Made by a program: the position numbers and the translations under genes | Part shown: positions 1,617 through 21,094 of the stretch, in pieces | Numbering within the stretch: the first letter of the stretch is position 1 | Layout of the letters: every line of letters starts with the position of its first letter | DNA from: a virus | Taxonomy: Duplodnaviria > Heunggongvirae > Uroviricota > Caudoviricetes | Direction: 5' to 3' (one strand) | Length of the DNA stretch: 21,579 bases | IMG/VR virus record: IMGVR_UViG_3300032245_001714 | The notes under the pieces: generated by a model | The model's input: only the letters and a program-made list of their open reading frames with translations | Database searches by the model: none | What the model was told of the DNA's origin: nothing

Positions 1617-3197
1617 TTATTTGAATTTGGATAAAATGTTATCTTTATTATCTAATGCCTTTTTCATGATCTCTATTTCTAAAGGTTTCAGATTGGTAAT
1701 TCTACTCTTCATGTGATACAGAATATATTCCATAGTTTCAAAAGCATCAATTGTTGATTGCTTTATTTTTTCCATGCTTTCTTCTGTGTAGTCGTTCTTT
1801 ACTATAGTGTCAAAAACTCTCCAGGTGTTTTCTGTTGATAGTCCGTTCTCCTCAAAGAATTTGACAAATTCTGATACCTTTAGATTCTCCTCGTCTTTTA
1901 CTAGTAGTGAAACTATACCGACTATTTTAGACCATTCCTCTTCTGAAAATTTTCCTTCTAGTATTCCTCTGTTGATGTTAACCAGAGAAGAAACTATTTT
2001 GTTTACTTCCATTTTAGATCCTTCTTTAAAGAAGATTTCTAGAGCTATCTTAATTGATTTCTCTCTTTCAAATTCTCTTAGCACTTTATCGATCACATTC
2101 GAAGGATAATCAAGACCTTTTAGAAATTTATCCAGCGAAATTCCAGTCTTCATTAATTTATTGAATGGTGTTGTTTTATTATTCTTGTCGAAGGCGTCTT
2201 TAACGTTTTGATCCTTATTAACAGTAAGTCCAATTAAACTGTTGACATTTACTGTTGAAAGATTCTTATTGATAAGTATTAGTTGAACGTTTCCTTCGTT
2301 ATATCTCCAGTACTGAGTTTCGCCCTTTACACACCAAGGGGTTGATGCACCTATAACATCAACTGCTTTAGAGTTCCTTGCCGAAACCACGATGTATCCG
2401 TCTTGGTTGCATAAAAATCCCACTTTAGCTCCTAGGCCTTTTATGGTTTCAACTATTTCATCCTCGTCGGTTTGCCAATCCTCTATCCATTTTTTAGAAT
2501 CATCGATTAGATAAGCAAAAGCAGCTTTTGGATTTCTGTACTCGTCATAATACCCATTAGGATACCCTGGGATTGGACTATTTTCATATTTCCCCAATGT
2601 CTCTTCGTAACTTCTCCAAGGTTTTTTTGTGACTTTATCACCCTTTTCGTCTACACCCTCCTTGTTTGGAAGTCGATCTATTTCGTTTGCTATTTCAGTT
2701 AGATCTTTAATTTGCTCCTCTGTTGCTCTTTCAAACTCCTCCTTCATTTTTGGGAGAAGTCCATTATAGAGCTTTCTGAGCTTTATCTTTCTAGGTATGA
2801 GATTAAGATCATCTTGTAGTTTTTCCCATCCTGGAGTTTTATCCTTCTTGGTCGGGATCATTGCTCCGTAATCTTCCAATTTCATCGGAAGGTCTTTGGC
2901 GATGTTTTGCTTAAATTCTTTTAGTAAATCATATATCTCTTGAAGATTCTCCAGTGAAGCTTTTTGATCATAGAGGAATTTAACAAAAAGAGGGGTGTAT
3001 CCGGGATCCTTTTGTACCATGTCCCTGATTTTGATAAAAGAAGGATCCTTTAAGATCTTTTCTTTTATTTCCGCCGGGATCTCAGAGGTCTTAATTTTTT
3101 TACTCTCCGCATATCTTTTCAGCAAATAGTCTTTTGCCATCTGAACGCTTTCAAATATCGGGGTTTTTTCAAAAAAAGTCTTAAATCCTGTTTGCAT
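1617..3197 (-). CDS. hypothetical protein, 526 aa, CTS-like N-terminus, central 'GxxTxWC' (PcfJ-like?) region
   Basis: Long ORF; starts MQTGFKTFFEKTPIFES; contains GASTPWCVKG...YWRY; family assignment tentative. Confidence 0.75.
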   Translation of the reverse strand: MQTGFKTFFEKTPIFESVQMAKDYLLKRYAESKKIKTSEIPAEIKEKILKDPSFIKIRDMVQKDPGYTPLFVKFLYDQKASLENLQEIYDLLKEFKQNIAKDLPMKLEDYGAMIPTKKDKTPGWEKLQDDLNLIPRKIKLRKLYNGLLPKMKEEFERATEEQIKDLTEIANEIDRLPNKEGVDEKGDKVTKKPWRSYEETLGKYENSPIPGYPNGYYDEYRNPKAAFAYLIDDSKKWIEDWQTDEDEIVETIKGLGAKVGFLCNQDGYIVVSARNSKAVDVIGASTPWCVKGETQYWRYNEGNVQLILINKNLSTVNVNSLIGLTVNKDQNVKDAFDKNNKTTPFNKLMKTGISLDKFLKGLDYPSNVIDKVLREFEREKSIKIALEIFFKEGSKMEVNKIVSSLVNINRGILEGKFSEEEWSKIVGIVSLLVKDEENLKVSEFVKFFEENGLSTENTWRVFDTIVKNDYTEESMEKIKQSTIDAFETMEYILYHMKSRITNLKPLEIEIMKKALDNKDNILSKFK

Positions 3198-3220: not shown

Positions 3221-3230
3221 GATATATATT
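3221..3230. promoter_or_regulatory. overlapping divergent late-type promoter boxes (GATATATA on +, AATATATA on -)
   Basis: GATATATATT reads RATATATA on both strands, 21 nt before ATG 3250 (+) and 25 nt before ATG 3197 (-). Confidence 0.6.
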
Positions 3231-5945: not shown

Positions 5946-5953
5946 GATATATA
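5946..5953 (+). promoter_or_regulatory. putative phage late promoter GATATATA
   Basis: 24 nt upstream of ATG 5978. Confidence 0.6.
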
Positions 5954-5977: not shown

Positions 5978-7210
5978 ATGGGAATAATTAAAAGCTTTAA
6001 AGCATTTATAAATGAATCGATTATTAACGAAGCAGCTGGGGAAGATAATAAAAGTATCGTTTTTCTAAGCGGTAGGGCTAGTTCTACTAGACTAGGAGAA
6101 GACGTAGCTAAGCAGCTGGGAATTAAAAAGGATGTTATCTACACAGTGGAATTACCTTCTTTCGGTTCTTTGGCCTTTATAGCTAATAAAGAATCCGGAC
6201 CTGCTGGGAACTTCACCTTAGGTGCAGAGAAAAATAACAAAATCAAAATCACCGACACTGGTAAAAAAAGCGTGGGTAAAGATGTTCTTATTGTTAACGG
6301 CAAGGGAATTAAAGATGGCAAAGGAACAATACTTTTTGAGAAGGAGGAAGTATTAGGTAAATCTCTAACCATCACTGCTTCTAATAATGGATTTTTGGCA
6401 ATGGTTAGATTGGGATCTGCTATGCTACAGTGTGCAGCTAAATCTAAAGAGATGGTTAAGCCATCCGGACTTTCTTGGTTCAATGCAACCAACTCGTCTA
6501 TTGAACTTGGACTAGGTGGAAATCCTAAAGAAGAATCTTCTAGAGAAGGCTTATTCACATATGCAATCACAAACTCGTATACGCCAACGTATAATGTTAT
6601 AAAACATATGATTAGTATTTGTATTGCTAAGTCTGCTGCTCCTGCAAATCAACCAGATGAATTAACTTTCCTAGATTACAAGGATGATAGCTGGACGGCG
6701 GAATTATTAAAGAGAACAAAAGGGGTTACTGACAGAGAGGAGATTTATAAAATTGCTGGAAAATACCTTGATGACTCAATAAATATAGCAAGAACCATTA
6801 GAATTAAGACTAATGATCTTATTAACGATCAGGAAATTAAGGCTAGCGATTTATGGTTTGATTACGTTAGCAACATCAAAAAATACACATCAAAGAAAAG
6901 AGTAGGATCTGGTGAAAAAGCCAGAGAAATTGTTACTCTTACCCCCGAAGGTTCTACTGAAGCAATAAAGTTACATAACGGATTGGCAAAAAGATTAGCT
7001 CCATCGAAGTTACCTGCACCGTTTAAAGCTTCTGAAAATCTTCTAAAAACAGCTAAGGAAATAGTTACATATGCTTGCGAATTCCCTACTAAGGGTAATT
7101 ACAATGGTCCATTAGAAAATTGCCAGGTTAAACACACTTTCACATCTGGAGTATCCCCATATGGATCTGCTAAATCCGAAGAAACAAAATACAAAGAGGG
7201 TAAATTCTAA
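5978..7210 (+). CDS. hypothetical protein, 410 aa, strong CTS-like N-terminus
   Basis: Starts MGIIKSFKAFINESIINEA; own promoter box upstream and terminator downstream; no family recognised. Confidence 0.85.
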   Translation: MGIIKSFKAFINESIINEAAGEDNKSIVFLSGRASSTRLGEDVAKQLGIKKDVIYTVELPSFGSLAFIANKESGPAGNFTLGAEKNNKIKITDTGKKSVGKDVLIVNGKGIKDGKGTILFEKEEVLGKSLTITASNNGFLAMVRLGSAMLQCAAKSKEMVKPSGLSWFNATNSSIELGLGGNPKEESSREGLFTYAITNSYTPTYNVIKHMISICIAKSAAPANQPDELTFLDYKDDSWTAELLKRTKGVTDREEIYKIAGKYLDDSINIARTIRIKTNDLINDQEIKASDLWFDYVSNIKKYTSKKRVGSGEKAREIVTLTPEGSTEAIKLHNGLAKRLAPSKLPAPFKASENLLKTAKEIVTYACEFPTKGNYNGPLENCQVKHTFTSGVSPYGSAKSEETKYKEGKF

Positions 7211-7273: not shown

Positions 7274-7738
7274 TTAGAATAAACCATTTTTAGGATCTCT
7301 TGCCTGTACCACGATCAGAACTGTATTTCCGTATTCCTTATAATATGTAAATGCAGCAAACGGATCTGATCCTTTATCAATGGAATTAGTGTTAACCCCC
7401 TCTCCAGATCCACTTATAGGTACAGATGTACCATAAACGAAGTCTCCCTCAAAAACATACACCTCCTTATCATAAGGAACCCCTTTACGTCTAAGAGATT
7501 TCTCGAGACGATTGAGATTTTCTGGAGTTTTATGCTGAAGTGAAACCCCTTGATTGTACCAGTTGATTTTACAAACTGTCATGGAATCATTAGGAGAAAA
7601 TCCCGAATTGGGATCCATTTCATAAAGACTCATCTTGGATGATTCCTTTAAATATTTAACAAATTGGGTCTTAATATCAGTTTGGGCATTTGCACCGATT
7701 GCCAAAAATAATGACAGGATTAAAGCTAATTTTTTCAT
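7274..7738 (-). CDS. secreted hypothetical protein with Sec signal peptide
   Basis: MKKLALILSLFLAIGANA|QTD: basic N-terminus, hydrophobic core, AxA site, Gln at +1. Confidence 0.8.
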   Translation of the reverse strand: MKKLALILSLFLAIGANAQTDIKTQFVKYLKESSKMSLYEMDPNSGFSPNDSMTVCKINWYNQGVSLQHKTPENLNRLEKSLRRKGVPYDKEVYVFEGDFVYGTSVPISGSGEGVNTNSIDKGSDPFAAFTYYKEYGNTVLIVVQARDPKNGLF

Positions 7739-7855: not shown

Positions 7856-7863
7856 AATATATA
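7856..7863 (+). promoter_or_regulatory. putative phage late promoter AATATATA
   Basis: 20 nt upstream of the endolysin ATG 7884. Confidence 0.6.
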
Positions 7864-7883: not shown

Positions 7884-8717
7884 ATGTTACTAAAGAAAGG
7901 GTCTAAAGGAGATGACGTAAAAAAACTCCAGGAAAAATTAGGATTAAGTGCTGACGGCAATTTTGGCCCAGGCACAGAGGAAGCGGTAAAAGCATTTCAA
8001 ACAAAAAGCGGATTGACCCCAGACGGTCTAGTCGGAGATGGCACTTGGTCTAAGTTATTCGGTGCAGCTCAGGTAGAAGCTCCGGTAGCAGCTCCGGTAG
8101 CTAGCATTCCGCCTTCTTCTTTCAAATTAGATAAGCTTAAAGGTCACGTTCCTGATGCTGTTATTGCTCAGATCCCTGACACAGCAGCTAAATTCAACAT
8201 CACTACACCTCTAAGACTAGCACATTTCCTAGCTCAGTGTGGTCACGAATCTGGAAACTTTAAAGCAGTTAGTGAGAACCTTAATTATTCAGCAGATGGT
8301 CTTAAAAAGATCTTCCCTAAATATTTCCCAGGTAATCTGAATGAATCTTATGCAAGACAACCTGAAAAAATCGCCGCAAGAGTTTATGGTGGTAGAATGG
8401 GTAACGGAGACGAAGCTTCAGGAGAAGGATACAGATTTAGAGGAAGAGGCTATATTCAATTAACAGGTAAAGAAAACTATAAAGCTTTTGACGCAACAGT
8501 TGAGGATGATATCTTAGCAAACCCGGATTTAGTTGCTACTAAATACCCTTTGATGTCAGCAGCTTTCTTCTTCAATAACAATAAACTCTGGTCAATTTGC
8601 GATCTGGGTGCTACTGAAGATGTAGTAAAAAAAGTTACATTGAGAGTAAATGGTGGTCAAATTGGAATTTTAGATCGAATTAAGCATTTCAACGAGTTTT
8701 ATGCTCTTTTAAAATAA
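7884..8717 (+). CDS. endolysin: N-terminal PG_binding_1 domain + glycoside hydrolase family 19
   Basis: LKKGSKGDDVKKLQEKL...DGNFGPGT...DGLVGDGTW (PG-binding); HFLAQCGHESG, ENLNYS, RGRGYIQLTGKENY, VNGG (GH19). Confidence 0.92.
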   Translation: MLLKKGSKGDDVKKLQEKLGLSADGNFGPGTEEAVKAFQTKSGLTPDGLVGDGTWSKLFGAAQVEAPVAAPVASIPPSSFKLDKLKGHVPDAVIAQIPDTAAKFNITTPLRLAHFLAQCGHESGNFKAVSENLNYSADGLKKIFPKYFPGNLNESYARQPEKIAARVYGGRMGNGDEASGEGYRFRGRGYIQLTGKENYKAFDATVEDDILANPDLVATKYPLMSAAFFFNNNKLWSICDLGATEDVVKKVTLRVNGGQIGILDRIKHFNEFYALLK

Positions 8718-8845: not shown

Positions 8846-8853
8846 GATATATA
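8846..8853 (+). promoter_or_regulatory. putative phage late promoter GATATATA
   Basis: 21 nt upstream of TTG 8875. Confidence 0.6.
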
Positions 8854-10046: not shown

Positions 10047-10054
10047 AATATATA
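10047..10054 (+). promoter_or_regulatory. putative phage late promoter AATATATA
   Basis: 25 nt upstream of ATG 10080. Confidence 0.55.
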
Positions 10055-10079: not shown

Positions 10080-10481
10080 ATGAAAACCCCCTTTGTACCT
10101 AACCATCTCCATTTGATTGTTAAAGGATATGTGAAAACCTCTCCAAAGAAAGAGGAGATTCTTAATGATTGGCTAAAAAGGCTAGTAGAAAAAGTTAGAA
10201 TGGTAGTGGTTGCAGGACCAACATCGGTTTATGTTAATGAACCAGGAAACGAGGGGATAACAGGAACAGTGACCCTTGCTACTTCTCACGCAGCTATTCA
10301 TGTCTGGGATAAAGAATCCCCTTCATTGTTTCAATTTGACATCTATTCTTGCAGCTGTTTTTCTGCAGAAGAAGTCCTAGAGCATCTTGACGAATTTGGT
10401 CTATCTTCTTGCGAGTACATCTACATAGATAGAAATAAAGACATGGTGGTTGTGGACCAGAAAAAAATTGCATACAGTTAA
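10080..10481 (+). CDS. speD: S-adenosylmethionine decarboxylase-like pyruvoyl proenzyme (SpeD family; substrate uncertain)
   Basis: HLHLIVKG, GITGTVTLAT|SHAAIHVWD and FDIYSC match class 1b AdoMetDC motifs; Thr instead of Glu before the cleavage Ser. Confidence 0.8.
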   Translation: MKTPFVPNHLHLIVKGYVKTSPKKEEILNDWLKRLVEKVRMVVVAGPTSVYVNEPGNEGITGTVTLATSHAAIHVWDKESPSLFQFDIYSCSCFSAEEVLEHLDEFGLSSCEYIYIDRNKDMVVVDQKKIAYS

Positions 10482-10491
10482 TTCCTGTCAT

Positions 10492-11043
10492 ATGAGATAT
10501 ATTAAACTATTCGAGAATTTCAATAAAGTTTATTATCACGGAAGTGCTAAGAAATTTGACACCTTCGATAGAGGCGTAAGCAACTATTCAGGCACAATAT
10601 ACTTTACAGAAAGTAAACCTTTTGCTATGCAGTTTGCTTCTGATAGAGGAACCGATAAAACCTACTTATACACGGTTGAGCTCTATAATAAAAAATCATT
10701 TGACCCTTTTAATAAATCGGAAAGAGATAAACTAATTCCTGTTCTTAAAGATCTGATACAGAAGAGATATGAAGATAAACAGACTGGTGCAAAATTCTAC
10801 TCTAAGTACATAGTTCTAAATGGTGAATCAATACAAGATCCAGATACTGACCAGTCAGTTCAATATCTCTTATGGAGAATAGAAAACGGATCTTGGAGAA
10901 TAATAGAAAGTCAACCTGTTATAGACTCAATTAGATCAATGGGATATGATTCTATAATAACAATAGAAAAGGGTCAAGAAAACGTAGCCGTTTTTGACCC
11001 TTCATTAATAAAGATTCTCGATATAGAAGAAATAGAAAATTAA
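10492..11043 (+). CDS. ADP-ribosyltransferase-like protein (ART-PolyVal-like) with CTS-like N-terminus; start moved from 10450 to 10492
   Basis: YYHGS...FDTF...IYFT...A..F...LYTVEL...GYDSI...VAVFDP..IK pattern; starts MRYIKLFENF; ATG 10 nt after the speD stop. Confidence 0.7.
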   Translation: MRYIKLFENFNKVYYHGSAKKFDTFDRGVSNYSGTIYFTESKPFAMQFASDRGTDKTYLYTVELYNKKSFDPFNKSERDKLIPVLKDLIQKRYEDKQTGAKFYSKYIVLNGESIQDPDTDQSVQYLLWRIENGSWRIIESQPVIDSIRSMGYDSIITIEKGQENVAVFDPSLIKILDIEEIEN

Positions 11044-11321
11044 CTTGCTAAAGCTTCGTTTATTTTAGCTACTATTTTATCTTTAGGTTGAACCCCCACT
11101 GATTTTTGAATAACCTCTCCATCCTTTAAAAACACGAGAACCGGTATACTCCTAATCTCGTATTTTGCCGTTAATTCCGGTTCGCTGTCAACGTTAATCT
11201 TTTTGATTTCAACGTTTGATCCTTCGACGTTATGCTCTGTCATCAGTGCTTCAATTGCTGGAATCATTGCTCTGCAGGGACCACACCAATCTGCATAAAA
11301 ATCTAATACTTGTACTTTCAT
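11040..11321 (-). CDS. trxA: thioredoxin
   Basis: DFYADWCGPC; YEIRSIP cis-Pro motif; 93 aa. Confidence 0.95.
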   Translation of the reverse strand: MKVQVLDFYADWCGPCRAMIPAIEALMTEHNVEGSNVEIKKINVDSEPELTAKYEIRSIPVLVFLKDGEVIQKSVGVQPKDKIVAKINEALAS

Positions 11322-11352: not shown

Positions 11353-12804
11353 CTAATCTTTTCTAGCTAGAGCTTGTGCTTGCTCTAGATCTTCCACTCC
11401 AAACTTTTGAGCTTGTTGTAAATATCCATTTGTGAAAGTCTTAGGCCTTCTTAAAGCCATATTATTCCATCCGTTGTATTGTGTTGTGTATTTCCAAATC
11501 TGTTCTGTTGTGATCAGATTAGGGTTAACTTTTTTATCGTAAAAATATCCACCAACATTTCCACCTGTTCTATCTGCACCGTGAGCACAATGTATTAAAG
11601 TGTTTCCCTTAAGTAATATTTCATTAACTTTGTCTTGATCTTTAGTTGCGGAAAGCTTATAGAAATTTATCCCAAGATCTTTGGCGATCTGTCTTTCTCT
11701 TTCTATCGAAACTGATTCATATTTAGCTTTGTGCTTTCCGTCCTTTCCATCTCCATTAAGCCTAATTACATTTTTTATTCCATACTTAGAATAAACATTC
11801 TTCATAATGTCTTCTGGAAATTGTGCACTTCTGTAATTTGTTCCTGTCTTATCTGGTATAAGATGAAAGTTAAATTCTTCAGAGATTTTTGGATCGTTCT
11901 TTTCTGGAGATATTTCTTTACCTTCTAAAGGTAATATACCTCCTTCCAAATCTTCCTCTTCTGAGCCTGTCTCGGGTTTATCTGGTGTTATGTTAGAAGT
12001 CCCGCTTCTCTTTGGTGCGTTCTTGCTTCTAGCAGAAGGGTTCTCGCTGTCTAAGGTGTCAATCGAAGGCTGAAATTGGGGTTTAAAATCTGCACCTGTG
12101 ATTTCGTACCATCTGGGTTGGACATCCTTCTTAGCTAACCAGTGATCATTTTCAACCTTATATTTATAAGGATCACCAGGTCTAGCTATAATTCCAATCG
12201 CTGTAACTACACCTTCCGGGTTTACCCCGGGAGAGATCCTCATTCTTGTTGGACTTGTGTATCTCTCAGTCTGAATTGCTTGGTCTATTGCATTTCCTAT
12301 AGTTGCTAAAACCGGTCTATCGCTATGAGCCTCTCTGTCGGTTGCAGAGAATCCTACTGGAGGTTCTATGACAGTTACCCCTAGATTTGAAAAAAGACTA
12401 TAGTATCTCCTAACATTATCTTCGGTGACTCCCCTATTTCCTCCCCATCCCCAAGATCCCTGGATAACCGTAATTTTAGACTCCTGGAATTTTGTTTTTA
12501 TGGAAGAGATTAACCCTGTGATATCCTCTCTTGGATTAAATCCGCCATTGGTTCCTATAGAGATAATTACATTTTTAACTGCTGGACTTACCGGGTATAA
12601 TGAAACTGCGTTTTTTAACCATTTAACTCCCATTCCCTGTTTCCAAAGAGATGCTTCCCCTGGTGTATTTGAGACTAGACCTGCTCCTTTTACATGTTTT
12701 GATATTAGAGGACATAACGAATCTCCTATAATAATATTAGATCCTCCAATCGCACCTTCAAAAATTTGGGAAAAGTCAGAAAAATTATGAATCCGGTTTG
12801 TCAT
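11353..12804 (-). CDS. SGNH/GDSL-hydrolase + Cys-based (tyrosine/dual-specificity) phosphatase fusion, CTS-like N-terminus
   Basis: IIGDSL, ISIGTNG and DREAH (SGNH blocks); NYRSAQ, IKNVIRL and HCAHGADRTG (CX5R P-loop). Confidence 0.75.
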   Translation of the reverse strand: MTNRIHNFSDFSQIFEGAIGGSNIIIGDSLCPLISKHVKGAGLVSNTPGEASLWKQGMGVKWLKNAVSLYPVSPAVKNVIISIGTNGGFNPREDITGLISSIKTKFQESKITVIQGSWGWGGNRGVTEDNVRRYYSLFSNLGVTVIEPPVGFSATDREAHSDRPVLATIGNAIDQAIQTERYTSPTRMRISPGVNPEGVVTAIGIIARPGDPYKYKVENDHWLAKKDVQPRWYEITGADFKPQFQPSIDTLDSENPSARSKNAPKRSGTSNITPDKPETGSEEEDLEGGILPLEGKEISPEKNDPKISEEFNFHLIPDKTGTNYRSAQFPEDIMKNVYSKYGIKNVIRLNGDGKDGKHKAKYESVSIERERQIAKDLGINFYKLSATKDQDKVNEILLKGNTLIHCAHGADRTGGNVGGYFYDKKVNPNLITTEQIWKYTTQYNGWNNMALRRPKTFTNGYLQQAQKFGVEDLEQAQALARKD

Positions 12805-12809
12805 GATAT

Positions 12810-12817
12810 TATATATC
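12810..12817 (-). promoter_or_regulatory. putative phage late promoter GATATATA
   Basis: Only 5 nt upstream of ATG 12804. Confidence 0.5.
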
Positions 12818-12833
12818 TATAAGAAGATTACTC

Positions 12834-13532
12834 CTATTGCCAATATCCATGATGGTTTCTGAAAAATTCAGGATTGTTTCTGTTGAAATAAGATCTGATC
12901 ATAATAGAGAACATCCAGAGAACCCCCTTGTTTCTAAACCTCCTAGCCGATGTCCATACTCTCATTCCACTCATGACTGTAAATCTTTTAGGTGAAACTT
13001 TCTTGGAAAGAGCATAGTCTTCTGCAAAAAGATCCATGGGATCATAACCTCCACACTTCCAGTATATGTCGGTTTTCCAGAGTTGAAATCCACCTATAGC
13101 AAATGGGGTTCCTAGCATCTTACTTATAGATTGAAAAAAATCAAATCCCCTATAAACCCAGTTCCACCCTTTATCAGTTTTCATTCTAAGTGTTAGAAGA
13201 TCAAAATCCGAGTTGATAACTTTCTCCAGAGTTCTTTGATCTGTTAACATTACATCCGAATCGAGAAATAGAACGTATGGGGTTTTTACAAGCTTTGATC
13301 CTTTTAGCCGGGCTTCTGCTGGGTAACCCCCTGGTATGAAATTTAGCTTAATTTTAAAAAAATCTTTCTTTGCTTTTTTTATCCACTCTAAAGATTCGTC
13401 ATCATCCGAACAGTCCGCTACAATAACGTTAGTTCCTCGTACTGAATTTTGGGATTCTATGTGAGATAAGCACTCGTAGAGAATTTCTCTCTCATTCTTT
13501 GAAGGTATGACTATCGTTAAACTATCCTTCAT
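12834..13532 (-). CDS. glycosyltransferase family 2
   Basis: IVIPSKNE, IVADCSDD, LFLDSD (DxD), GGYD...AEDYAL, TSARRF. Confidence 0.88.
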   Translation of the reverse strand: MKDSLTIVIPSKNEREILYECLSHIESQNSVRGTNVIVADCSDDDESLEWIKKAKKDFFKIKLNFIPGGYPAEARLKGSKLVKTPYVLFLDSDVMLTDQRTLEKVINSDFDLLTLRMKTDKGWNWVYRGFDFFQSISKMLGTPFAIGGFQLWKTDIYWKCGGYDPMDLFAEDYALSKKVSPKRFTVMSGMRVWTSARRFRNKGVLWMFSIMIRSYFNRNNPEFFRNHHGYWQ

Positions 13533-14217
13533 ATTTGTGAATAGTGAATTCCCCCTTTTCGTATATCACATAACTATTGTTCTCTATCCAATCCCCGGTG
13601 TTTAAATATCTGATCCCGTCTATATCTCTGTCTTCTGGGTGATGTATATGACCACAAATTACTGTGTGACAATGATGTTTCTTTGCTTGTCTAGTCAATT
13701 CGATCTCAAACTGAGTAATGAACTTAACAGCTTCCTTTACTTTTTGTTTTAAGAACTTAGATAATGATCTTTTCATTCCCAATTTTTTTAGTTTTCTATC
13801 AATTGAGATTGCCAGATCGTAACCAACTGATCCTAAAACACCTAACCATTTCAATTTAACAACACCATCATAAAGATCCCCGTGTGTAATGAATGTGTTT
13901 TTCCAGACATACTCGTTATGAACCTCTATGTTACCAAATGAGAATTCTCCATACTCTCTAAGAAACTCGTCATGGTTCCCTGGGATGTATATTACCCTTG
14001 TTCCATTCTTAGAATACGATAAAATTTTTCTGATTACATTGGTGTGGGATTGTGGCCAGCGAAATTTTCTCTTTAACAGCCAGCCATCTATAATATCGCC
14101 AACGAGAAAAAGAACCTCAGGGTCATATTTCTTGAATAATAACAGAAGTTCTTCTGCATTACTCCCTTTACTTCCTAAATGGACATCGCTAACAAATAAG
14201 GCCTCTATCTTTTGCAT
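13522..14217 (-). CDS. calcineurin-like metallophosphoesterase, LpxH/UDP-2,3-diacylglucosamine hydrolase-like family
   Basis: SDVHLG, GDIIDGW, GNHD, HGD, GHIH and NTGDW motifs; 11-nt overlap with the GT2 start. Confidence 0.85.
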   Translation of the reverse strand: MQKIEALFVSDVHLGSKGSNAEELLLLFKKYDPEVLFLVGDIIDGWLLKRKFRWPQSHTNVIRKILSYSKNGTRVIYIPGNHDEFLREYGEFSFGNIEVHNEYVWKNTFITHGDLYDGVVKLKWLGVLGSVGYDLAISIDRKLKKLGMKRSLSKFLKQKVKEAVKFITQFEIELTRQAKKHHCHTVICGHIHHPEDRDIDGIRYLNTGDWIENNSYVIYEKGEFTIHKYEG

Positions 14218-14314: not shown

Positions 14315-14875
14315 TTAAATTAAGTTGGAAATTATCCTCTCCTTTATGCCTGATTGCTTGATCCCCTCATTACTTCTGGGGGTAAGGATAAAATTGTCCA
14401 ATCCAGGATGGAGGAATTCATTAGACATGTTGAGATCATCTACTGCAACCCAAGATTCAACCGCATTTTCCTCTAGCCATTTTTTAATCTCTAGACATCT
14501 TGCTCTTTCAAGCCAGCCTTTCCATGAGAAAATCCACGATGTTTCTTCATCGAATTCAGCCAGGCTAGGTGTAAATGCGATAGGAGGCTTGATGATACCC
14601 TGTTTTTTGTAAAATTCTGATAACTCCTCAAGAGTTGCGTGCATTTTCCAATCGGAAGAAACAACAATTTCAGCTCCAGTGGTTTCCAATATTTCATTTA
14701 GCACCTCAACAGCCTTGGTGTCAAAATTATCGAGACGAACATGCACATCCACCGTTTTCGCATTAAGATCCCAATCGGGATTTTTCATCTTGTACTTTTT
14801 CATCTTCTTGTGTCTACTTCCCCAATTGTTGGAGAGACAAATAACACCATCATGATCTAAAAAAATAACTTTCAT
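14315..14875 (-). CDS. HAD-superfamily phosphatase (Swiss-Army-Knife RNA-repair-like HAD)
   Basis: IFLDHDGV (DxD), IVVSSDWK, EIKKWL, WVAVDDL. Confidence 0.8.
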   Translation of the reverse strand: MKVIFLDHDGVICLSNNWGSRHKKMKKYKMKNPDWDLNAKTVDVHVRLDNFDTKAVEVLNEILETTGAEIVVSSDWKMHATLEELSEFYKKQGIIKPPIAFTPSLAEFDEETSWIFSWKGWLERARCLEIKKWLEENAVESWVAVDDLNMSNEFLHPGLDNFILTPRSNEGIKQSGIKERIISNLI

Positions 14876-15281: not shown

Positions 15282-15382
15282 ATAAAGTTATATTCCTCCA
15301 GCGGTATTTTGTTTCCTGATATTTTATAAATTGCGTGAGCTGAAGCTATAAGACCAAGACCCATAAACATATATATTATATC

Positions 15383-15602: not shown

Positions 15603-16100
15603 CTAATTCAATTTTTTAGGTTTTCGTAAAAGTGAATCTGTATTTGGAACTGGATAAATTGAATCTTTCGGTACTCTTCCAGCCCCGTATATTTTTCTTC
15701 CTTTTAGATCGCTCACGATAACACCATCCATTCTATTTGCCGAATGGACAAATTTATTGTCGTATAGGTAAACCCCAACATGCCACCCGCTTGGACTTTG
15801 CTTGCTTTTAAAGAAAACGAGATCTCCTGTTTTTAGACTGTCCGTTTTAATCTTCTTAGTTTCAGCATATTGACTCTTAGCCGTTCTGGGTAGTGTAACA
15901 CCATAGACAAATTTAATCATCTCTCTGGAAAAGGCAGAACAATCTATACCGCTCTTTTTGGTTCCTCCGTATAAATATTTAACTCCAATCCAACTGTTAA
16001 CAAAACTATCAATCTTGCTTAGATTAACAAATTGAGCTTTAGCTGGCTGAAGACCTGCTAAAAAACAAAGTATAAATAAAAACTTTTTCATTTTTTTCAT
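15603..16100 (-). CDS. NlpC/P60 (C40) peptidoglycan peptidase with signal peptide; start could be 16106, 16100 or 16091
   Basis: YLYGG...GIDCSAF, LPRTA, GDLVFF, HVGVY, FVHS; MKKFLFILCFLAGLQPAKA|Q signal peptide. Confidence 0.88.
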   Translation of the reverse strand: MKKMKKFLFILCFLAGLQPAKAQFVNLSKIDSFVNSWIGVKYLYGGTKKSGIDCSAFSREMIKFVYGVTLPRTAKSQYAETKKIKTDSLKTGDLVFFKSKQSPSGWHVGVYLYDNKFVHSANRMDGVIVSDLKGRKIYGAGRVPKDSIYPVPNTDSLLRKPKKLN

Positions 16101-16151
16101 AATCATAATTTTAATATTGCAAAATAACGGAAAAATTCCATGGGATTTCGT

Positions 16152-16382: not shown

Positions 16383-16390
16383 TATATATT
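16383..16390 (-). promoter_or_regulatory. putative phage late promoter AATATATA(AATA)
   Basis: 24 nt upstream of ATG 16358; the run also contains TATAAATA. Confidence 0.55.
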
Positions 16391-16408: not shown

Positions 16409-17134
16409 TTAATTAAATATTCTTTCTCTTTCCATTCTTCTTAGACACTCAAGTGGAGTTTCATTTGGTAATAGTTCATATCCACATCCAAGGGTGCCTC
16501 CTTTCCAGCTACCTGATCTTTCCCCAACTTCGTCATTGAATGTAATATCAATGGTTCTCTTGACCTTTGCGAATAGACTGGTCCACTTAAACCATCTAGG
16601 TCTCCACTCTCTTTCTTCCACTCTAAGGGTAGCAGTTCTTTCCTGGACAGTTCCATTCTTTAGTGTATAAGTATATGGATAAGTCCACTCCCAAAGTATA
16701 CCACCCCATTTTTCCCTGTCGTAAAATTCTTTATTTCTTCTTCCTAGTTTTTCTGATAAGAGCTCGTGTTCCCATTCACCGTCCATCCTCATACATGATG
16801 TTCTAACCCATGTTAGATCCCATGGCATGTAGATAAATTTAGTTTTCTTTCCCAAACAAAAAACAAGTGAAGTTGGAAACCATGAATCGTTTGAATAAAG
16901 ATAAAACCCGTATTCTGGTGGATCACACTCGTCGTATTTACTTCTAATAAATGGAATGTTGATGTAAAATTGTCCCCATCCAGTGGAGAATGAAACATGA
17001 GCTCTGTTATCAAAGTAACTTGCTGGTGCTATCCTAAAGTTTAACTTGTGCCATCCTGTACAAAATTCCATCCAATTATTTTTGTAAATTGTACGCTTAC
17101 CGTATTTTTCTTTTCTGAATCCTATAAATTCCAT
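16409..17134 (-). CDS. hypothetical protein, 241 aa, aromatic-rich
   Basis: Long ORF in an operon-like run. Confidence 0.8.
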   Translation of the reverse strand: MEFIGFRKEKYGKRTIYKNNWMEFCTGWHKLNFRIAPASYFDNRAHVSFSTGWGQFYINIPFIRSKYDECDPPEYGFYLYSNDSWFPTSLVFCLGKKTKFIYMPWDLTWVRTSCMRMDGEWEHELLSEKLGRRNKEFYDREKWGGILWEWTYPYTYTLKNGTVQERTATLRVEEREWRPRWFKWTSLFAKVKRTIDITFNDEVGERSGSWKGGTLGCGYELLPNETPLECLRRMERERIFN

Positions 17135-17709: not shown

Positions 17710-18327
17710 TTAGCTTAAATGGTCACTCATATTTTTTGCAGATTGTATGGCATCTTCCCAATTCTCAATAGTCCTTGCTCCTCTTAATCTATATGGGATG
17801 TAACGAGCAACGCCATCATTTCTGATGTCATCTGCCCACCATGTATCTCCATCGGCTTCAGCCTGGGCGATCCCATCATTATACTCTTTTACCCAACCAG
17901 CCCATTGTTCTGGAGTGTAGTCTTTTTCCTGAGGCTCGTAATTACCGTCGAAAATTTTATCCCCGATTTTGAAAGTACAACCACCTCGATGAGTATAGCC
18001 ATAGTATCCAACAATTCCTGTAAGATCGTCATTCATTAGAATAGCAACACCATGAGGATAAGGTTCATATACTTTTAGCTTGTTCTTCTCATACCATTCA
18101 GCTCTTTTAAAATCTCCAATGTACTCACCTCCTTTACTAACAAATGAATTTTCTAGAACCCCATGGTAGATAATGTCTTCCCCATGAGATGGTTTTTCAT
18201 TTGATTTAAAATTACCACCTACACCTTTAACATCCCACCATTCATAGGTTTCAATTAAACCCCCTGTTGATTTTTCGATAACTGCTATCCTCTCGAAGGA
18301 TGGTCCATCATTTGTTTTTATTTCCAT
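17710..18327 (-). CDS. hypothetical protein, 205 aa
   Basis: Long ORF, 4 nt from the next gene. Confidence 0.8.
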   Translation of the reverse strand: MEIKTNDGPSFERIAVIEKSTGGLIETYEWWDVKGVGGNFKSNEKPSHGEDIIYHGVLENSFVSKGGEYIGDFKRAEWYEKNKLKVYEPYPHGVAILMNDDLTGIVGYYGYTHRGGCTFKIGDKIFDGNYEPQEKDYTPEQWAGWVKEYNDGIAQAEADGDTWWADDIRNDGVARYIPYRLRGARTIENWEDAIQSAKNMSDHLS

Positions 18328-19846: not shown

Positions 19847-21094
19847 TTAATTACTTAATGGTGCTTTAATTGATGGATGTGATTGATAATTCTCTAATTT
19901 AAAAGTTAATTCATTATCTAATGAGTAGACGATGTCATCTATATCTAACAAATGCCAATTTTCATTACCTGAATTTATTTTTAGTGTTGGTAATGGGTAT
20001 GGTTCTCTTGTGTGTTTTGATATGTTATTATCCTCAAATCGAGTCTGCCAAGTCCATTTATTTTCTCTATCTTTTTTATTTTCTATTGCATAATACATTT
20101 CAACCATTTCTTCGTGTGTTCTTTCTCTACCAATCTGTTCTTTTGCTTGTTCAACATGATTTGAATATAAATGTACATCACCTAAATTTCCAATCAGCTC
20201 ATCAGGAACCATATTAACTATCTTAGCAATAATTTCTAATAACAAACCATAAGAAGCAATGTTAAATGGTAAACCAAGAAAAGTGTCAATGCTTCTCATA
20301 TTAAACATTAAAGAGATTGCTCTGGTTGGTATATTCCATTGATTGATTTCAGAATGAGATAAAGTTTCTGGTCCACCTCCATTGTATATTTGATTAAACA
20401 TTTCTTGACTGACTAATGATCGTCTTTCTTCTAAACTCAACTCTCTTGTATAAACTTGAAATCCATAATGACAAGGTGGAAGAACCATTTGGTCGAGCTC
20501 GGATGGATTCCAGGCCGATACTAGTAGGCGTCTAGAGTCTGGATTTGTTTTAAGGTCGTTGATTAGGTTTGCGATTTGGTCATTGATTGTTGTTACAACT
20601 TTACCATCTTTTACAGACACTTGTTTACCGTTCCAATCTCTCCACTGCTTACCATAAATTGGACCTAATTCACCCCACTTCTTAGCAAACTCATCATCGG
20701 TTTTGATTTTGTTGATGAATTGTTCTTGTGTTAATTGAGTTATTTTTGGGTCTTTAGGTGAGCTAAGGTCCCAATTCAAGTCGTTTGGGTCTTCAATTTG
20801 ATTTTTTGTTTTTACGAGATAGTTAGCGTAACAGTCCCCATCCCAAATATGACAACCATTATTAACTAAGTACTTAATATTAGTATCTCCTCTTAAAAAC
20901 CAGATGAGCTCAGTTACTACTCCTTTAAAATAGAGTTTTTTAGTAGTCAAAGCAGGAAACCCGGTTTTCATATCATGTCTTATGGTTCTCCCAAAGACAC
21001 TTAAAGTACCAGTTCCTGTCCTATCTTGTTTTTCGATACCATTATCAAGAATGTCCTGTAAAAGAGCTTGATAATCTAAATCTAATTTATTCAT
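19847..21094 (-). CDS. thyA: thymidylate synthase (ThyA) with long insertions
   Basis: DRTGTGT, LIWFLRGDTN, GPIYGKQWR, SAWNP, LPPCH, RSIDTFLGLPFNIASY, GDVHLY.NH. Confidence 0.95.
   Translation of the reverse strand: MNKLDLDYQALLQDILDNGIEKQDRTGTGTLSVFGRTIRHDMKTGFPALTTKKLYFKGVVTELIWFLRGDTNIKYLVNNGCHIWDGDCYANYLVKTKNQIEDPNDLNWDLSSPKDPKITQLTQEQFINKIKTDDEFAKKWGELGPIYGKQWRDWNGKQVSVKDGKVVTTINDQIANLINDLKTNPDSRRLLVSAWNPSELDQMVLPPCHYGFQVYTRELSLEERRSLVSQEMFNQIYNGGGPETLSHSEINQWNIPTRAISLMFNMRSIDTFLGLPFNIASYGLLLEIIAKIVNMVPDELIGNLGDVHLYSNHVEQAKEQIGRERTHEEMVEMYYAIENKKDRENKWTWQTRFEDNNISKHTREPYPLPTLKINSGNENWHLLDIDDIVYSLDNELTFKLENYQSHPSIKAPLSN

Follow-up and report, generated by a model that had tools for sequence, protein, structure and literature searches.

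Which role could be played by a phage protein that joins an esterase to a phosphatase behind a short leader peptide, and in which compartment of the host would it act? The question is raised by a gene of IMG/VR virus record IMGVR_UViG_3300032245_001714, whose 21,579 nucleotides are hereafter called the window. The gene, which comes from an uncultured giant T4-like phage, lies at 11353..12804 on the minus strand and encodes, in order, a 16-residue leader, an SGNH esterase domain (N), a small module (M), an acidic linker and a phosphatase domain (C) of the dual-specificity/protein tyrosine phosphatase (DSP/PTP) type. Its product is probably a virion- or lysis-associated envelope enzyme bearing a candidate T4-type address tag. 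A first-pass annotation had read the same architecture (tag, SGNH domain, small module, linker and CX5R phosphatase) from the letters alone; it was right throughout, and the motifs lie where it had placed them.

Two enzyme domains joined by a small module

According to its predicted fold and its Ser/Gly/Asn/His set, the N domain belongs to the SGNH/GDSL superfamily. The GDS and GTN motifs occupy residues 27-29 and 84-86, and G27, D28, S29, G57, G84, N86 and H160 are invariant in 41/41 N-domain homologues, as is a family-specific motif, W118-G-W-G121. The AlphaFold2 model of residues 1-270 has a predicted local distance difference test score (pLDDT) of 81, its alpha/beta core (21-182) being mostly at 82-96 with one 10-residue block at 72. 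Foldseek returned 29 PDB matches at E<=1e-3, with SGNH-fold proteins only among the matches listed, and VIA-align gave Z 11-13 over residues 14-183, again with SGNH enzymes only. The best structural match is the C-terminal domain of OatA (OatA-C, 6wn9; Z 13.1, root-mean-square deviation (rmsd) 2.7, 141/155 residues). Within 1 Z of it lie PAF acetylhydrolase, sialate O-acetylesterase, PatB and esterases of families CE2, CE3 and CE20. Without exception, the closest SGNH structures are acetyl-group enzymes acting on glycans or small lipids. The OatA-C score ties with those of other acetyl-esterases, and peptidoglycan (PG) is a putative substrate.

Sequence searches with the N domain gave no match in Pfam (Lipase_GDSL models), NCBIfam or PHROGs. 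Some distant fusion relatives match Lipase_GDSL_2, and the sole weak match of the esterase profile to PDB sequences was a CE2 esterase, over block III (E 0.34). The canonical block V DxxH is absent: position -3 from H160 is not acidic and no acid is invariant in the 41 sequences. The D-x3-H that had been noticed earlier is literally present (D156-x3-H160), but D156 (-4) is kept in only 14/41; an acid at -2 (E158 in the target) is kept in 34/41. As in CE2 enzymes, the active site may rely on a Ser-His dyad or on an alternative acid. OatA-C, PatB and Ape1 resemble the domain in their compact SGNH fold, in the Ser/Gly/Asn/His set and in the PG-directed modules of its relatives. However, they are only 18-19% identical to it, and the target has neither the conserved Asp of DxxH nor an MBOAT/AT3 partner. 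Membership of the Ape1 (CE3) group was rejected, since the Asp is not conserved and Ape1 is absent among the fold matches listed; by analogy, an Ape1-like mode of action is possible.

The C domain belongs, by its HCX5R(S/T) signature and modelled DSP fold, to the Cys-based PTP/DSP superfamily. In its P-loop, H405, C406, G409, D411, R412, T413 and G414 are invariant in 21/21 full-length homologues, and conservation of D411 stays at 90% or more in the wider phosphatase family. No upstream general-acid Asp is invariant in this wide family; among close homologues, D389 reaches at least 90% conservation. A P-loop Asp can serve as general acid in myotubularins, and D411 could do likewise. Residues 323-328 form an NYRSAQ motif, and the C-terminus of the domain is extended by a conserved helical stretch rich in aromatic residues. 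With the AlphaFold2 model of residues 286-483 (pLDDT 93), Foldseek and VIA-align returned DSP/PTP enzymes only. AtPFA-DSP1 matches with Z 13.0 (rmsd 2.8-3.1, 132-134 residues aligned), and TpbA, Siw14, PTPMT1, Cdc14, VHZ, Tk-PTP and DUF442 lie within 1 Z of it. Since so many DSP/PTP structures are tied, the fold gives the enzyme class, not the substrate.

Pfam Y_phosphatase3 (PF13350) matches the target at 15.2 bits (E 0.022), below its gathering cut-off of 22.2 bits, and is matched at E<=1e-3 by 75/135 distant relatives (best 3.6e-19). The phosphatase family also gives weak Pfam matches to PTP-SAK and Tc-R-P, and its profile gave P-loop-level matches only to PDB sequences (MptpB, E 0.11). TpbA (PA3885, periplasmic, from Pseudomonas aeruginosa), AtPFA-DSP1, Siw14 and DUF442 share the DSP fold with the domain (Z 12.5-13.0). 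TpbA, which is extracytoplasmic, and the atypical DSPs with a YRS motif further share the NYRS-type N-terminal motif, the HCxxGxxRTG loop and the small size. However, these proteins are only 15-21% identical to the C domain, which has its own aromatic C-terminal extension, its P-loop Asp and its fusion to esterase or wall hydrolases. Moreover, the substrate of TpbA is protein and that of PFA-DSPs is inositol pyrophosphates.

AlphaFold2 with Foldseek and VIA-align thus recovered both folds that the annotation had read from motifs. Judging from residue conservation, both enzyme domains are very likely active. A catalytically dead structural or binding protein, to which the unconserved SGNH triad acid and the Pfam scores below cut-off might point, is extremely improbable, because Ser, Gly, Asn and His as well as the P-loop Cys and Arg are invariant down to ~40% identity.

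Module M, whose PGDPYKYK..W..W spans residues 209-232, is modelled confidently after a disordered stretch (mostly at pLDDT ~92, with 72 and 78 for the end blocks). A Pfam search relaxed to E 5 found nothing for it, and an Atlas search gave weak SH3b leads only (0.81-0.84), inside the noise range. From its position and these leads, M is a candidate wall-binding module. In three relatives (P0024, P0026 and P0096), it is replaced by a different small module, PG_binding_1-like by eye and undetected by Pfam. The linker varies in length and sequence among homologues.

Neither domain is covered by curated families (Pfam cut-offs, NCBIfam, PHROGs). In single-sequence searches, the target found nothing in NCBIfam, nothing in the PDB by phmmer and one unknown PHROGs family at E 0.06. 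Three independent assemblies contain intact copies of the gene at 99% identity. All 199 relatives retrieved from 5.8 billion proteins are of metagenomic origin, the most informative name among them being 'protein tyrosine/serine phosphatase'. A tblastn search of 50,697 GenBank phage records gave zero matches, and cultured phages in GenBank are, by this search, without a close relative of the protein. Furthermore, 185,579 species genomes yielded only seven matches, every one on contigs of metagenome-assembled genomes. Therefore, the close family is essentially phage-borne.

The same architecture does occur elsewhere. It is retained by full-length homologues of 48-82% identity and shared by 29 or more protein clusters, which come from independent assemblies. 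Among 120 relatives, 29 are tag-N-M-C, 39 carry N-M with other or no C-terminal parts, 12 are M-C and 25 join C to other N-terminal parts. The remaining type, N and C without M (13/120), is mostly in reverse order (C then N). Since the esterase-phosphatase fusion recurs in these independent clusters, with either enzyme domain first and in lineages distant from each other, it is not an assembly artefact. The annotation had held that separate genes in relatives would make the fusion an artefact. Stand-alone forms do exist (SGNH+module proteins, PG-binding+phosphatase proteins), but they reveal modularity instead. Because two complete relatives do without the phosphatase, the fusion is not obligatory and the modules are separable. 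By comparison of these architectures, the target fusion is one arrangement from a shuffled module set.

This shuffling takes place in a conserved slot. The gene sits between HAD_SAK_2 and thioredoxin genes in the genomes of related giant phages (217-434 kb), and the architecture in the slot varies between phages (NMC, NM, NM-X, N-C). All eight distinct syntenic relatives that were inspected have both flanking genes, irrespective of the architecture between them. The idea that thioredoxin reduces the catalytic Cys was dropped, since its gene stays next to the slot in phages whose protein there has no phosphatase domain.

The leader and head packaging

The leader, MTNRIHNFSDFSQIFE, follows the consensus MxxxIxxFxxFxx[LI]xE. 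F8 and F11 reach at least 90% conservation in full-length homologues, in which E16 is invariant and residues 17-21 vary; in the AlphaFold2 model the leader is detached (pLDDT 41-49), with a helix at 8-15. A [LIVMF]-x-E motif lies within residues 6-24 in 101/118 Met-started relatives. A leader of this type also directly precedes M-C proteins. In a natural variant on a 181-kb viral contig (L085:1498-2271, minus strand), which has lost the esterase and most of M, the leader MRVISKFELFEALNEG.. runs in frame straight into the phosphatase, and the adjoining gene begins MKHVKIFENFINEG. Similar N-termini occur on other genes of the window: MGIIKSFKAFINES at 5978, which is the best non-self match of the leader hidden Markov model (HMM) in six frames, MQTGFKTFFEKTPIFES at 3197 and, on the ART-PolyVal gene, MRYIKLFENF. 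Stereotyped leaders of other kinds open whole runs of consecutive genes in a second phage lineage (MKKVIRLTESEL.., MKIIITESQ.., MNLQENIxRIK..). In two other IMG/VR contigs (L024 and L044, 291 and 187 kb), long series of adjacent small genes share near-identical leaders, MKKVIRLTESELVRLVK.., MKIVITESQFQFIRR.. and MNLQENIQRILEII.., whose classes differ from those of the window.

T4-type prohead proteases cleave after Glu, and N-terminal propeptides of 10-20 residues target cargo to the head (PMC9026906, PMC5694885). Peptidase_S77, the gp21-type protease, is above its Pfam cut-off in 8/8 relatives that are at least 90% complete. The leader is a candidate capsid-targeting or propeptide tag, and the comparison of sequences slightly favours packaging into the head through it. 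The T4 cargo with a capsid-targeting sequence (CTS), i.e. IPI-III and Alt processed by gp21, is alike in several respects: an amphipathic leader of 10-20 residues ending in hydrophobic-x-Glu and carried by unrelated cargo, a gp21-type protease gene (here in the complete relatives) and a basic mature protein. The mature target (17-483) has a predicted mass of 51.6 kDa and a predicted isoelectric point (pI) of 8.8. However, its leader differs in sequence from the T4 MKTYQEFIAE, and the target is a 52-kDa two-enzyme protein with wall hydrolases in its relatives and with putative packaging. Furthermore, the T4 cargo acts in the cytoplasm, unlike the envelope action proposed here.

In genomes of relatives (G001-G004, G006, G011), the Peptidase_S77 frame has 655-681 aa in the window-like lineage and 241-258 aa in the other. 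The long-frame prohead protease may be fused to another (scaffold?) protein.

Site of action and possible mechanism

The domains with which the phosphatase is associated suggest where it acts. We tallied them by Pfam scans of 84 close variants and 135 distant representatives (~220 architectures). The distant set holds the 135 best new ones of 914 proteins found at E<=1e-3 when the phosphatase-domain profile was run against 1.84 billion representatives. The close variants carry PG_binding_1 (26), Beta-lactamase2 (2), GDPD, Phage_lysozyme and Peptidase_M15_4 (1 each). The distant ones carry PG_binding_1 (15), Lipase_GDSL_2 (8), Glucosaminidase (4), Phage_lysozyme2 and SLT (3 each), and Peptidase_M23, Amidase_2, VanY and Phage_base_V (1 each); among these partners, a link to the wall is lacking only for TPR and MORN repeats, each seen in a single protein. 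For instance, P0142 consists of leader, GDSL esterase, phosphatase, PG_binding_1 and SLT, and P0153 of phosphatase, PG_binding_1 and amidase. In P0149 the phosphatase stands behind a baseplate-spike OB domain, and P0093 joins a module and the phosphatase to GDPD. No nucleic-acid, kinase or nucleotide-signal partner domain was found among the ~220 architectures.

Moreover, ~34/135 distant representatives (hand count from a hydropathy listing) are short proteins with a hydrophobic N-terminal signal or anchor. One of the distant set is chromosomal in Lewinella (Bacteroidota), and the nearest cellular relatives carry hydrophobic N-terminal signals; nothing informative came from the gene context of the cellular relatives, which was inspected in Lewinella and on a Bacteroidota-like contig. 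These signals and the wall-directed partners argue for the envelope rather than for cytoplasmic signalling, and on these sequence comparisons the envelope is the likely site of action. O-acetylation of N-acetylmuramic acid (MurNAc) at C6 blocks lysozymes and lytic transglycosylases (PMC6174289), so an esterase fused to such wall-cutting enzymes, or travelling with them, is coherent. T4 gp5 lysozyme, on the baseplate spike, and T7 gp16, the internal-core transglycosylase, are likewise particle-borne wall enzymes acting at entry, and the relatives that carry SLT, lysozyme or a Phage_base_V spike are akin to them. However, gp5 and gp16 are glycosidases, and an esterase-phosphatase pair is not described among such enzymes in the literature searched, which also yielded no phage SGNH/phosphatase fusion and no wall-directed phage phosphatase.

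The same partner domains bear on a quite different role, that of a counter-defence effector injected or made early and acting in the cytoplasm. Its phosphatase would act on targets of defence kinases, nucleotide signals or RNA ends, and its esterase on a cytoplasmic metabolite. Such a role would agree with the cytoplasmic action of T4 CTS cargo (PMC9026906), with the lack of a secretion signal in the target (no transmembrane segment or signal peptide, best 19-residue hydropathy window 1.2) and with the weak matches to PTP-SAK and Tc-R-P. Acb3, Tad6, ART-PolyVal and HAD_SAK_2 are also nearby, HAD_SAK_2 being the conserved upstream neighbour. It is nevertheless unlikely, since the partners tallied above are recurrently wall hydrolases, PG_binding_1, GDPD and a baseplate spike, PG-binding domains would be useless in the cytoplasm and the closest cellular relatives bear export or anchor signals. 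The annotation had proposed an effector delivered from the virion that would deacylate an envelope glycan and reverse defence phosphorylation or remove a phosphorylated signal. Delivery and the envelope glycan fit the evidence, but the partner domains lend no support to the second part.

RNA repair, suggested by the HAD_SAK_2 neighbour and the PTP-SAK matches, was rejected as the main explanation, as no partner domain in the tally processes RNA ends. Assignment to the polyvalent proteins (Iyer et al. 2017) was also rejected: the target has 483 aa only, and no conflict-type partner domain was found. One relative has a weak LPD29 match (E 0.0066).

Endolysin-type partners (GH24, amidase, PG_binding_1) would also suit an accessory of lysis at the end of the cycle. 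Made late, the protein would reach the wall via holin lesions and strip substituents for the endolysin, its leader having another role or none. The promoter-like box common to the target and a PG_binding_1+GH19 gene would agree with this. We consider such a role rather unlikely, since endolysins are not characterised by a conserved leader with [LIV]-x-E at its end, such leaders occur on many unrelated genes and one relative carries the phosphatase on a baseplate spike, which acts at entry.

Alternatively, the SGNH domain could act as acyl-transferase or esterase on lipopolysaccharide (LPS) or wall glycan and, with GT2, the LpxH-like phosphoesterase and an epimerase, remodel the host surface against superinfecting phages, a strategy proposed for jumbo phages (PMC7824862). 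GT2 and LpxH-like Metallophos genes lie directly upstream on the same strand, an epimerase is nearby and the best structural match, OatA-C, is an acetyl-transferase. This remodelling is very unlikely: the target has no export signal, OatA/PatB-type transferases require a membrane acyl-donor partner, of which none was seen, and the GT2/Metallophos adjacency is not conserved in relatives, whereas the HAD_SAK_2-target-thioredoxin order is.

We therefore return to a modular, virion-delivered enzyme aimed at the host envelope. The gene would be expressed from the phage-specific promoter-like box GATATATA, the leader would load the protein into the prohead in the manner of the T4 CTS and the gp21-type protease would cut after E16 (I-F-E|G). 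At infection, the basic ~52-kDa mature protein would exit the virion. In the periplasm, M would tether it to the wall; relatives have another small module in place of M, or PG_binding_1 alongside it. The SGNH domain would strip small O-acyl groups, most likely O-acetyl, from a wall or envelope glycan, which would expose the glycan to the glycan-cleaving enzymes of the phage. The phosphatase would take a phosphate monoester off a non-protein envelope substrate, for which a sugar phosphate on wall or LPS, or a lipid-linked (pyro)phosphate, are candidates. With all its claims taken together, this scheme is tentative, its chances being a little below even.

Several points weigh against it. The target itself carries no recognised PG-binding or hydrolase domain, and the leader HMM detects other N-termini of the window weakly (6.4 bits, E 0.17, for the one at 5978). 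T4 CTS cargo such as the IPs and Alt works in the cytoplasm, not in the periplasm (PMC9026906). The triad acid is not conserved in the SGNH domain, and the neighbours of the gene include counter-defence homologues (Acb3, Tad6) and an ADP-ribosyltransferase (ART). Two complete relatives have the esterase and no phosphatase domain anywhere, which makes the phosphatase dispensable. Finally, we know of no phosphate-bearing wall substrate in the presumed Gram-negative host.

A more specific form of this scheme, which we regard as quite doubtful, would have the two enzymes work as a matched pair that clears the C6 hydroxyl of MurNAc of both O-acetyl and phosphate. The phosphate would derive from phosphodiester-linked wall polymers, and its clearing would let a transglycosylase or lysozyme cut at entry. 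The architectures of P0142 and P0093 and the occurrence of both domain orders make such a pair consistent. If true, this would make the enzyme the first phosphatase to act on a wall glycan, corresponding in the bacterial wall to laforin and SEX4, and would imply phosphate-linked wall polymers in the Gram-negative hosts, which are probably Bacteroidota. A DSP joined to a glycan-binding module is also found in the glucan phosphatases laforin, SEX4 and LSF2, which is an analogy only: LSF2 and laforin appear among the fold matches of the C domain, but there is no specific sequence relation.

Phages are known to breach the envelope with glycosidases, peptidases, amidases and glycan deacetylases. 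A cysteine phosphatase recurrently wired to such enzymes, to PG-binding domains and to a baseplate spike suggests that a phosphate-bearing envelope component may matter for entry or lysis in a large group of uncultured giant phages. If its substrate is a wall or lipid-linked phosphate, the enzyme would be a new tool for the biochemistry of cell walls and would represent a new class of accessory domain for lysins. The family is compact, has clear active-site residues and is directly assayable. Moreover, with the target, the system of N-terminal address tags proposed for these phages gains a well-defined cargo.

Coordinates and neighbouring genes

Table 1. Positions, in the window, of the target gene, its parts, promoter-like boxes and neighbouring genes.
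Feature	Position	Strand	Remarks
Target gene	11353..12804	-	483 aa + stop; single intact open frame, no interruption
Leader	12757..12804	-	residues 1-16, MTNRIHNFSDFSQIFE; amphipathic, ends [LIV]-x-E (I-F-E)
SGNH-fold esterase domain (N)	12256..12744	-	residues 21-183; from conserved residues and predicted fold
S29 codon	12718-12720	-	putative nucleophile; set also includes G57, N86
H160 codon	12325-12327	-	
Module M	12019..12210	-	residues 199-262; four short predicted strands and a helix (GDPYKYKV..W..W)
Linker	11896..12018	-	residues 263-303; acidic, Pro/Glu-rich, pI 4.4
DSP/PTP-fold cysteine phosphatase domain (C)	11356..11895	-	residues 304-483
P-loop HCAHGADRTG	11563..11592	-	residues 405-414; putative nucleophile C406, R412
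Promoter-like box GATATATA	12810..12817	-	5 nt upstream of target ATG; putative promoter
RATATATA boxes	79-86, 3221-3230, 5946-5953, 7856-7863, 8846-8853, 10047-10054, 12810-12817, 15370-15377, 16383-16390		
Thioredoxin gene	11040-11321	-	directly downstream of target
HAD_SAK_2 gene	14315-14875	-	upstream of target
GT2 gene	12834-13532	-	
LpxH-like Metallophos gene	13522-14217	-	
ART-PolyVal gene	10492-11043	+	E 2.8e-12
S-adenosylmethionine decarboxylase gene	10080-10481	+	PF02675, E 4e-11
PG_binding_1+GH19 gene	7884-8717		
Small unknown protein gene	7274-7738	-	signal peptide
NlpC/P60 peptidase gene	15603-16106	-	signal peptide
Acb3 homologue	16409-17134	-	E 2.3e-50
Tad6 homologue	17710-18327	-	E 5.2e-12
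Thymidylate synthase gene	19847-21094	-	415 aa

The window holds 10 RATATATA boxes against 3.5 expected, and most of them sit just upstream of gene starts. Five precede leader-tagged genes and others precede the GH19, LamG and S-adenosylmethionine decarboxylase genes; the boxes at 15370 and 16383 are loosely assigned. The spacing to the ATG is usually 16-25 nt, and only 5 nt at the target. As a promoter, this box would yield a near-leaderless mRNA for the target gene.

The GT2 and LpxH-like Metallophos genes, directly upstream of the target, overlap by 11 nt, and the latter scores far below the NCBIfam LpxH cut-offs. For the ART-PolyVal ADP-ribosyltransferase, the likely true start, which gives the leader MRYIKLFENF, matches the gene calls of relatives (183 aa). 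By analogy, this protein is a possible counterpart of T4 Alt, a head-packaged ART. The homologues of Acb3, an inhibitor of the cyclic-oligonucleotide-based antiphage signalling system (CBASS), and of the Thoeris inhibitor Tad6 lie a few kb from the target. Classical hydrophobic signal peptides are found on the NlpC/P60 peptidase and on the small unknown protein (..AKAQ, ..ANAQ). Since such Sec signal peptides stand alongside leader tags, the phage would have two routes for envelope proteins. The S-adenosylmethionine decarboxylase is 80% identical in relatives. Finally, the thymidylate synthase matches the 266-position Pfam model in two stretches and therefore carries a large insertion.

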